This document shows positions 45,719 to 48,064 of a stretch of DNA of 64,000 nt, piece after piece (position 1 is the stretch's first letter; every line of letters begins with the position of its first letter). The position numbers and the translations under genes were made by a program. The stretch is from positions 2,965-66,964 of the forward strand of contig CAIUGE010000116.1 in NCBI GenBank assembly GCA_903898645.1. The letters run 5' to 3'. Source of the DNA: Oligoflexia bacterium (GTDB lineage Bacteria; Bdellovibrionota; UBA1018). The notes under the pieces were generated by a model, which was not told the origin of the DNA, did not search any database, and was given only the letters and a program-made list of their open reading frames with translations.

Positions 45719-45835
45719 GGTAACTGGTCAGCCTAAAAAAAATAATTCAATCAGTTCGATGCGAATGGAGGCTTTTTCCCTTCGAACAACCAGAAATTTT
45801 CTGCTGAACTTTAGTCATACAAAGCTCACGCTCGC
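45719..45835. repeat. left arm of a ~120-bp inverted repeat (IR-L)
   Basis: It is about 85-90% identical to the reverse complement of 47943-48064. It begins GGTAACTGGTCAGCCTAAAAAAAATAATTCAATCAGTTCGATGCGAATGGAGG. Confidence 0.85.
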
Positions 45836-46180
45836 CTTGATTATCAGCAAAAGGGACCGTCGCGTCTTCCACAAAAAACAGAACTTCTCAGGTATTCTTG
45901 TTCTGCCCGTCGAATAAGCTGACGATACATTGAGAAGATGCTCACACGATAAGGAGGCAAAAGCGAGCCGACAAAGGCCTCTCAACTACTTCCCCGGCCG
46001 CTCAAAAAGCTAAAGCAATGACTCCAATAGGTTACTTAGATCAGATAGCCCCCGTGTTACGAAGAAAGATAGAGAGCGCAGTACCGAAACAAACAAATCA
46101 TAATAGCCTGAGTATACTCCAAAGATCGCCGAAAAAGTTACCTATTGCTCTTGCGTTGGCTACCGAAAGAGCGTTACGTG

Positions 46181-47448
46181 TCAGGTCGACTCTTGTAACG
46201 TTGTAAGATTCCGGAGATACTTCAGGTGTAATGCTAATGCTCTGGCGCCCTTGTCCCTAATATCATTATCACTCAGGTCGAGCGTTGTAAGATTTGAGAG
46301 CTCCTGCAGGTGCGCCGCTAGTGAGCTAGCGCCGTTGACATGAATAGAGTTACCACCCAGGTTGAGTGTTGTAAGATTCGGAAGATCCTTCAGGTGTGCT
46401 GCTATTGCTGTGGCGCCGTTGGCCCCACTATCGTTATGACCCAGGGCGAGCGTTGTAAGCTTCGGGAGATACTGCAAGTGTGCTGCTAGTATTCTAGCGC
46501 TGTCGTCCCGAATATTACCTCTCAGGTCGAGCGTCGTAAGCTTCGAGAGATACTGCAGGTTTTCTGCTATTTCTCTGGCGCCTTCTGACCTCAGAGCGTT
46601 AAGGCGCAAGTTCAGTATTGTAAGATTCGAGAGATCCTTCAGGTGTGCTACGAGTGCCTTAACCCCTTCTGCCGAGGTACCGTCGATCCTAGTAGTGGTA
46701 TTGCCCAGGTCAAGTGTTGTAAGTTCGACGAAAGATCTAAAAGAGTCAGCTAATGCAAACAATGTCTCTGATCGCACAACTCCTCCATGAAGACGGAGTA
46801 CCGTGAGCTTACTCAGGAGTCAAAATGCACCGATTAACTCCGGAATTGTTCCGACTGGGTCGCAACCGTGCATACTTAATTCTCGAAGGGCTGGCAATTG
46901 AGAAAGTTGCGCAATAAGTTCTGACGAAAATCTTACCTTTTTCGTGCATTCTATTGTTAATTGAGAAAATTGCGCTGAATCTTCGCTGCTCAAAAATTGC
47001 CGTATTTCATCTTGACACCGAAATGCTATATGTATTTTTTTATCCAAATAAAGTGGTCGTATCTTCTTGTAAAAATGGTACGATATTTTTTCTGACCATA
47101 ACGTCTTATAGTGAGGATTTTTTTATTCCATAAGTACTTTGCTCTTTCATCATTAAATACATTTTCAAAACCGCCAGAAGCATGCCGTGCAAGGAGAGTA
47201 TAGTATCTTGGTGAAAAATGACTGACGATTTGCTGCCACACATCCTGTGACAAATTGGGGAGTTGGATCAGATTTAAGGCGCCTGTCACAGGCTCTGGAG
47301 AGGTTACTGATGCACTCTCAAGTGAGATAGAAGTACTTATCTCACCCTCATGAGAGCCAGCAGCAAAAGCTATCGACATGAATACCAAAGAGAAAGCAAT
47401 AAAAAAAAGTGCCTCTGTGTATGTTTTCCATAACTTCTGGATACACAT
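46181..47448 (-). pseudogene. frameshifted paralogue of the F-box/LRR gene, split into three ORF pieces (47026-47448, 46820-47047, 46181-46777)
   Basis: The N-terminal piece has F-box-like LPNLSQDVWQQIVSHFSPRYYTLLARHAS. The middle piece matches the QFSQLT...LPALKEL linker of the 11350 gene. The C-terminal piece has 6 RNI-type LRRs. Confidence 0.7.
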
Positions 47449-47942
47449 AGCTCATGTATCGCTCCATGTCAAGGACGAAAATCCAATCACGTACGCCCCC
47501 AAGGCCATTGCATCGAATTTTATAGCAGGTGGGCGCCTGGGGGATCTCATGAGAGACGCGCTCCATACATTGCTAGATCGAAAATCGCGTCTCGTGGCCA
47601 TAGAAAAACTACCGAACAAGATGGGGGCTATTCGAACAACCAGACGATCGATTTTTACATGCCAGCAAGTCATTGATCGGCATATGGGTCTCCCCCGAGA
47701 TGAATACTCGCTTCGATCGCCATGAGGCCGCTGTGCGAGCAAAAAATCACCTGCGGTGAGCTCGCGCGAGTCTACGAGCAAGACGGACAAATGTGGACCA
47801 AGAAAATAGCTACGTTACTAGAGACGCTCAACAGCGCCGTACATGCCGCTGGAGGCAGTTTACCTCCACTTGAAGCTAAGCGCTTTCGTGAGCAGTATCA
47901 TCAGCTTATGCGACGGACAGAACAAGAATGTTAGGATTTAGG

Positions 47943-48064
47943 AAAGCGAACGCGATCTCCGTATAACTAAAGTTCAGTAGAAAATTTCTGGTTGTTCGAA
48001 GAAGAAAGACCTCCATTCGCATCAAACTGATTGAATTAATGGTTTTTAGGCTGACCAGTTACCA
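47943..48064. repeat. right arm of the inverted repeat (IR-R); it includes the last 9 codons of the aminopeptidase gene
   Basis: Its reverse complement matches IR-L. It encodes ...LVTGQPKNH* of the 48036-49037 gene, while IR-L reads VTGQPKKNN... instead. Confidence 0.85.

Follow-up and report, generated by a model that had tools for sequence, protein, structure and literature searches.

The segment at positions 45720-48062 of a 64,000-nucleotide stretch from an Oligoflexia bacterium (contig CAIUGE010000116.1; the whole stretch is called the window below) is very probably a decayed, composite-transposon-like relic, in which the right ends of two insertion sequences (IS) of the IS66 family, ISBst12 group, stand in inverted orientation around a leucine-rich repeat (LRR) pseudogene. 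The whole unit measures 2343 bp. An earlier note on this DNA had described the two arms as inverted repeats derived from the 3' end of a neighbouring aminopeptidase gene, bracketing a segment that might be invertible. The features of the arms on which our reading is based are the following:

45720-45928, minus strand: left arm, the right (3') end of one IS66/ISBst12 copy; its transposase pseudogene reads leftwards.
45928-45895, minus strand: left-arm coding piece YRQLIRRAEQE (transposase residues ~365-376).
45887-45747, minus strand: second transposase coding piece of the left arm, 46 aa.
47755-48062, plus strand: right arm plus its extension, the right end of a second IS66/ISBst12 copy; its transposase pseudogene reads rightwards.
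47755-47931, plus strand: transposase residues ~319-376 of the right copy, within open reading frame (ORF) B (47722-47934).
47942-48034, plus strand: second transposase coding piece of the right copy, 29 aa.
45720-45733, plus strand: left outer IS terminus, GTAACTGGTCAGCC.
48049-48062, minus strand: right outer IS terminus, GTAACTGGTCAGCC.

The inverted repeat is real and stands far above chance level. In a gapped local alignment, 45720-45928 pairs with 47895-48062 with 151 of 165 aligned positions identical (~91%), and a blastn comparison of one arm with the other gives an E value of 7e-33. The similarity comprises an outer block (45720-45838 / 47943-48062, ~87% identity) and an inner block of 35 nt (45894-45928 / 47895-47929, 91% identity), and the alignment shows that the right arm lacks ~41 nt kept by the left arm. 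A repeat finder returned arms at 45735-45838 / 47943-48046 (104 nt, 84%) plus a perfect 21-nt outer pair at 45719-45739 / 48043-48063. The reverse complementarity at 85-90% that had been noted from the sequence is thus borne out by alignment, with boundaries now extended to those of the gapped alignment. The 35-nt core is present at exactly two places in the window, where 0 copies are expected, and neither the unit nor its arms were detected there again. As a check for a dispersed repeat, a 22-mer from the arm core was searched in genome, metagenome and viral contig collections and was absent from them, a result with little power because the source genome is not among them.

The two plus-strand ORFs in the right part of the unit, A (47378-47725) and B, matched no Pfam or NCBIfam profile and no entry among 5.8 billion proteins. 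The first lead to IS66 came from a permissive tblastn search of plasmids, in which ORF B weakly matched annotated IS66-family transposase genes, and as a follow-up we searched the window by tblastn with a 485-aa IS66 transposase from Anoxybacillus. Residues 405-437 of this protein match 45887-45789 on the minus strand (58% identity, E = 1e-6), while residues 320-376 and 421-443 match 47758-47934 and 47942-48010, respectively, on the plus strand. We also assembled a 107-aa test peptide from the best-preserved transposase pieces. It matched 69 plasmid records, all of them IS66 or 'transposase' where annotated (best E 2e-12), and 13 proteins among the 5.8 billion, 13/13 with PF03050 (best E 1.5e-17). 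Compared with family profiles, the peptide gave E = 2.3e-6 with NF033517, transpos_IS66 (27 bits; cut-off 180), and E = 3.9e-4 with PF03050 (20.3 bits; cut-off 23.1); the left-arm fragment alone gave 4.6e-5 and 1.6e-3 with the same two profiles. Finally, the window was scanned with a hidden Markov model (HMM) built from six single-ORF (ISBst12-group) transposases. Positions 319-376 of the model were found at 47755-47931 and positions 422-443 at 47945-48010, both on the plus strand, and positions 397-442 at 45911-45774 on the minus strand, the fragments being collinear and on opposite strands in the two arms; nothing was found at 47378-47754, even with filters off. Since the arms match IS66 transposase by both tblastn and HMM, they are the 3' parts of two oppositely oriented IS66 transposase pseudogenes. 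The comparison of 47378-47934 with transposase and recombinase profiles that had been suggested earlier gave nothing with Pfam and NCBIfam, but ORF B could be matched to IS66 transposase by the other two methods. The two plus-strand ORFs, previously considered to be of unknown origin, are not genes: ORF B is a transposase fragment and ORF A has no homologue.

Each arm closes with the same terminus, GTAACTGGTCAGCC, which occurs in the window at these two sites only. For comparison, we located the termini of ISGst1 (GTAACTATTCAGCC / GTAACTATTCACCC, 1613 bp, 8-bp direct repeat AAAAGAAC) and of a copy on pHTA426 annotated as ISGka4 (GTAACTATTCAGCC / GTATCTATTCAGCC, direct repeat AACTCGTC); a B. 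cereus copy has the terminus GTAACTACTCAGC and the Anoxybacillus copy GTAACTATTCAGCC. The termini of these reference copies follow the pattern GTAACT(A/G)(T/C)TCAGC(C). The terminus GTAACCATTCAGC belongs to a copy from a metagenome with a transposase that ranks among the closest relatives, and the ISBst12-group element ISDge4, for which transposition in Deinococcus geothermalis has been shown, has the termini GTGACTACTCAGCA / GTAACTGCTCAGCA and an 8-bp direct repeat (PMC12898284). The IS end of the arms is shared with elements from Bacillota, Deinococcus and Gammaproteobacteria, according to our own comparison and to PMC12898284.

Two genes lie at the outer termini:

45008-45709, plus strand: lipoprotein-like gene (from the ORF list) flanking the left terminus, outside the element; its stop codon (45707-45709) is 10 nt before the IS end, as the earlier note had it.
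48036-49037, minus strand: putative aminopeptidase, PF10023 (Pfam E 4e-69).

The right terminus falls inside the aminopeptidase gene. Codons 326-333 (VTGQPKNH) and the stop occupy 48036-48062, 27 nt that form the outer end of the IS remnant and are read antisense by the gene, and the IS terminus opens with the three bases, GTA, that make up the V326 codon. The Pfam Aminopep domain stops at residue ~320, and homologues of the protein carry, at the position of VTGQPKNH, an unrelated ...LAxRxC tail of similar length. The end of this gene had correctly been placed within the right repeat, although it comprises only eight codons plus the stop, and not nine codons. Arm-to-arm similarity ends at the IS terminus, the next 15 nt matching at 3/15 positions, so that the aminopeptidase tail was taken from the IS and not the repeat from the gene. 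The last eight codons and the stop are IS-derived, and the origin formerly proposed for the repeats, in the 3' end of the aminopeptidase gene, has to be reversed.

Both IS copies are in an advanced state of decay. In this region of the transposase the closest homologues carry YRxLLxxAxxECPPPDE..GxRGRxKRSKARNLLERLRDYE..VLRFM, and by comparison with them both arms lack the ~30-residue CPPPDE...NLLERLRDY stretch. Both arms also lack ~33 C-terminal residues of the transposase, with 27-28 nt left between the stop of the remnant and the terminus, and the right arm has additionally lost 14 residues and gained an in-frame stop. Upstream, the left copy ends at about residue 364 and the right copy at about residue 319. 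Overall, HMM positions ~319-376 and ~397-460 survive, and the DDE catalytic regions, the left halves and the left ends are gone from both copies. A candidate for an inner IS end, a GTAACTTTTTCGGC site at 46128-46141 with three mismatches, was rejected, as we estimate that ~1.8 such sites are expected by chance. Because two transposase deletions are common to both arms, both descend from one already defective copy, either through its mobilisation in trans or through gene conversion between two copies.

The DNA between the arms, together with a related gene elsewhere in the window, consists of the following:

46181-47448, minus strand: LRR pseudogene (RNI-type, LRR_6; Pfam LRR_6 E 2.4e-18), in the pieces 47448-47026, 47047-46820 and 46777-46181.
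45929-46180: spacer that separates the left IS remnant from the LRR pseudogene (3' end), with no IS66 HMM match and no homology to the arms.
47449-47754: DNA upstream of the pseudogene, including most of ORF A, with no Pfam, NCBIfam, protein or IS66 HMM match.
11350-13449: intact paralogue, a 699-aa LRR_6 protein (tblastn and BLASTP).

The enclosed LRR gene is a true pseudogene. Its repeats have a period of 84 nt, and it carries one frameshift near 47040 and one in-frame TGA at 46820-46822, both lesions being identical in three independent metagenome contigs (L006-L008). The earlier description of a frameshifted F-box/LRR paralogue holds for the LRR part, to which the in-frame stop is to be added, but the F-box could not be confirmed: there was no Pfam match to it at E<=10 for the N-terminus of the pseudogene or of the paralogue, and the motif LPxLSxDVWxxI was seen by eye only. 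The intact paralogue shares its N-terminal region with the pseudogene (30% identity, E 3e-7), and no IS remnant was detected beside it. As for 47449-47754, it is probably non-coding or decayed past recognition.

The base composition of the pseudogene is also atypical. The GC skew at third codon positions (GC3 skew, plus strand) has a mean of -0.345 for 48 genes of either strand in the window (standard deviation 0.19 for plus-strand and 0.12 for minus-strand genes), whereas the pieces of the pseudogene have 0.00, -0.18 and +0.02, and 46181-47448 falls in the top 0.7% of stretches of equal length. Such values agree with DNA that came in, or changed its orientation, once its flanks had equilibrated; we consider the evidence only supportive because four other genes of the window share a near-zero skew. 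The same four genes, and the fact that a foreign origin explains the values equally well, led us to reject GC skew as proof of inversion.

The alternative that the arms recombine with each other, inverting the 1.8-kb interior and switching the expression of something, is very improbable. Inverted repeats of 170-210 nt do bracket the segment, and its near-zero GC3 skew could in principle reflect time spent in both orientations, but a skew near zero is also found in the four other genes just mentioned. Moreover, the arms are poor substrates, as they differ by ~10% as well as by indels and share no perfect run longer than ~26 nt. The interior consists only of a pseudogene and unassignable DNA. 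A search with Pfam and NCBIfam profiles found no recombinase, invertase or integrase domain in the ORFs of 38400-55591 (~7 kb around the segment) or inside it. The organism is present in several ENA metagenome assemblies, and all eight contigs that we used from other assemblies (L001-L008) are collinear with the window: L003 (44474-46000) spans the left arm and L006 (48311-46166) the right arm, both at 100% identity and in the arrangement of the window. An inverted junction was not seen in any of the eight, although assemblies show the majority state only, so that a low-frequency inversion could be missed. The contigs that cross the arms (L001-L006, from at least three assemblies) have a single orientation, which is thus fixed in the available assemblies; of the two orientations that, according to the earlier note, might be met in related sequence data, only that of the window was observed, and its flip-flop segment is without support. 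That the repeat was made by a chimeric or hairpin join during assembly can virtually be dismissed. The sequence is indeed a metagenome contig, and the contigs of two assemblies (L001, L002, L007 and L008) break at 47933/47936, where those from the aminopeptidase side stop at 47933 and those from the cassette side at 47936, so that they overlap by 4 nt (AGGA); a third assembly, available as gene coordinates only, also ends at 47933, 103 nt past the aminopeptidase stop. However, the assemblies that break there appear to come from one low-coverage sample, and the simplest reading of the break is a gap in the coverage of a single common read set, from which a 4-nt overlap is expected. The arms are imperfect (~90%), unlike artefactual hairpins, and L003 and L006, from the assembly of another sample, span them at 100% identity. 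A structural polymorphism at 47933/47936 was rejected on the basis of the 4-nt overlap, the single apparent sample and the fact that L006 crosses the site.

A segmental inverted duplication that copied the aminopeptidase 3' end and the DNA downstream of it across the cassette would account for the left arm having the same VTGQPK-coding bases as the tail of the gene, but we find it scarcely credible. The shared sequence starts at the GTAAC of the IS terminus, with only 3/15 matches in the 15 nt beyond, and the shared bases are an IS end conserved in Bacillota, Deinococcus and Gammaproteobacteria; random copying would not stop at a transposase cleavage site. Unlikely, though to be taken more seriously, is a non-autonomous cassette resembling the mobile insertion cassettes (MICs), that is, a defective ISBst12 derivative with two identical right ends and an LRR passenger, moved by a transposase supplied in trans. 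Both arms end exactly at the IS terminus and share internal deletions, as copies of one defective end would, the total of 2343 bp is an IS-like length, and the atypical GC3 skew of the cargo suggests arrival from elsewhere. Against this, the outer flanks have no 8-bp direct repeat (4/8), searches of the window and of the genome, metagenome and viral collections gave no second copy of the unit or of an arm, and no intact source of transposase was found; with a pseudogene as cargo and arms ~10% diverged, any mobility would be long past. We hold to be distinctly improbable the stronger proposal that the 2.34-kb unit was a trans-mobilisable cassette with 170-210-nt terminal repeats and a eukaryote-like LRR effector gene as passenger; if true, it would have been a vehicle moving host-interaction genes in an uncultivated lineage without close sequenced relatives.

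Our preferred explanation, a relic of two inverted IS66 right ends around the LRR pseudogene, has itself several points against it. The homology of the transposase matches is clear, but they score under the curated family cut-offs because the pieces are short. No IRL-type (left-end) terminus was found to mark the inner limits of the copies, and neither the window nor public proteins yielded an intact copy of this IS. The 8-bp flanks outside the termini (CAGGAGAG versus CAAATAAG) agree at 4/8 positions, which is not significant and gives no target duplication, and this leaves a one-step insertion of the whole unit unsupported. The source genome and its close relatives are outside the searched collections, so there is no empty site to compare, and among 185,579 species genomes even the best relatives of the aminopeptidase do not exceed 43% identity, which is too distant for an empty-site or synteny comparison. 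Under the composite-relic explanation, two ISBst12-group copies lie in inverted orientation around the LRR gene with their right ends (transposase 3' end plus terminal repeat) outward, as in a composite transposon or after a duplicative inversion. The terminus of the right copy lies inside the 3' end of the aminopeptidase gene, giving it eight IS-encoded codons and a stop. Possible routes are a pair of separate insertions, or a duplicative inversion with later deletions. The data demonstrate what the arms and their termini are, that the gene tail derives from the IS, that the cargo is dead and that the orientation is fixed in the available assemblies; from them we infer the order of events, the present immobility of the unit and the absence of a switching function.

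Our results are mainly corrective, in that a striking inverted repeat, resembling a switch or a duplicated gene end, proves to consist of two decayed IS ends. The former view of an insertion scar, with accessory genes being shuffled or lost at this locus, was right in spirit, but not in the origin and the flip-flop that it proposed. The IS-derived C-terminal eight residues matter for the annotation of the aminopeptidase, and ISBst12-type IS66 elements, together with the IS-associated decay of an LRR effector-like gene, are documented in an uncultivated bacterium. The unit is a defunct example of a well-known kind and opens no new mechanism.

Some further observations concern the arms and their surroundings. 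Structured RNAs, tRNA attachment sites and terminators were ruled out as the nature of the arms: Rfam gave no match at E<=1 on 45500-48300, when the arms were folded as RNA, each on both strands, the z-scores lay between -0.45 and +0.15, without unusual stability, no tRNA was found, and promoter and terminator scans did not rise above chance level. A lipobox, LLSACGG, and a long low-complexity stretch rich in Thr and Ala are present in the lipoprotein-like protein, which belongs to no Pfam or NCBIfam family; its exact sequence is recorded only in ENA/NCBI assemblies, and those contigs for which there is DNA come from ENA metagenomes and match the window at 100% identity. Of the two cysteines conserved in most aminopeptidase homologues, the protein encoded here has neither that of RRACG nor that of the C-terminal ARxC. 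Its nearest homologue, its own identical record aside, is 45% identical, and its nearest named relatives come from metagenome-assembled genomes of Myxococcota and Bdellovibrionota; judged by these homologues, the organism is phylogenetically isolated in current databases.

Across 1-64000 the GC3 skew amounts to a very strong strand bias that is independent of gene orientation, which implies a single replichore. The four genes with near-zero skew (2630-3376, 28924-30048, 41795-42481 and 42529-43386) may be recently acquired or inverted. Two of the four make up a PMT_2/STT3-like glycosyltransferase that is apparently split in two adjacent plus-strand ORFs (41795-43386) and is possibly another pseudogene: 41795-42481 covers only the first 109 of 160 positions of the PMT_2/STT3-like profile, 42529-43386 has no Pfam match, and the skew of both is atypical. 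Outside the window, the plasmid NZ_CP040453.1 of Halomonas sp. PA16-9 contains at 81080-86253 an unannotated ISBst12-type IS66 transposase gene, apparently interrupted after ...LDFAFLDN; the interrupting DNA has an IS21-helper-like ATPase frame and adjoins a group II intron reverse transcriptase.

Compared with known systems, the arms resemble the ISBst12 group (ISBst12, ISGst1, ISDge4) in the transposase motif VPF-(T/D)NN/DNQ-ER, present in fragments, in termini that follow GTAACT-NN-TCAGC(C), and in the closeness of the transposase 3' end to the right terminus. They differ from it in that only the last ~210-310 nt of each copy remain, versus ~1.6 kb in a complete element, without an intact single transposase ORF and with the DDE region and the left end gone; in the two internal deletions, the in-frame stop and the lack of 8-bp direct repeats; and in their transposase, whose closest homologues are only 41-47% identical. 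With MICs and other non-autonomous IS derivatives, the unit has in common IS-type terminal repeats around a passenger and no working transposase, but its repeats are unusually long (170-210 nt) and contain remnants of transposase coding sequence, and neither further copies nor a target duplication accompany them. The transposition mode of the ISBst12 group is not established, copy-and-paste having been proposed in one report (PMC12898284). Unlike the products of duplicative inversion by intramolecular replicative transposition (IS26, Tn3), the unit has had the inner ends, with their diagnostic reverse-complement copies of the target, deleted; like them, it has inverted copies with the same end outward and no direct repeat across the pair, and the skew anomaly is compatible with the inverted interior that such an event predicts. 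Finally, two inverted IS copies with matching outward ends enclose a gene unrelated to transposition, as in composite transposons such as Tn10 and Tn5; unlike those, the unit has defective, truncated IS copies and a pseudogene as cargo, lacks a target duplication and gives no evidence of having moved whole.

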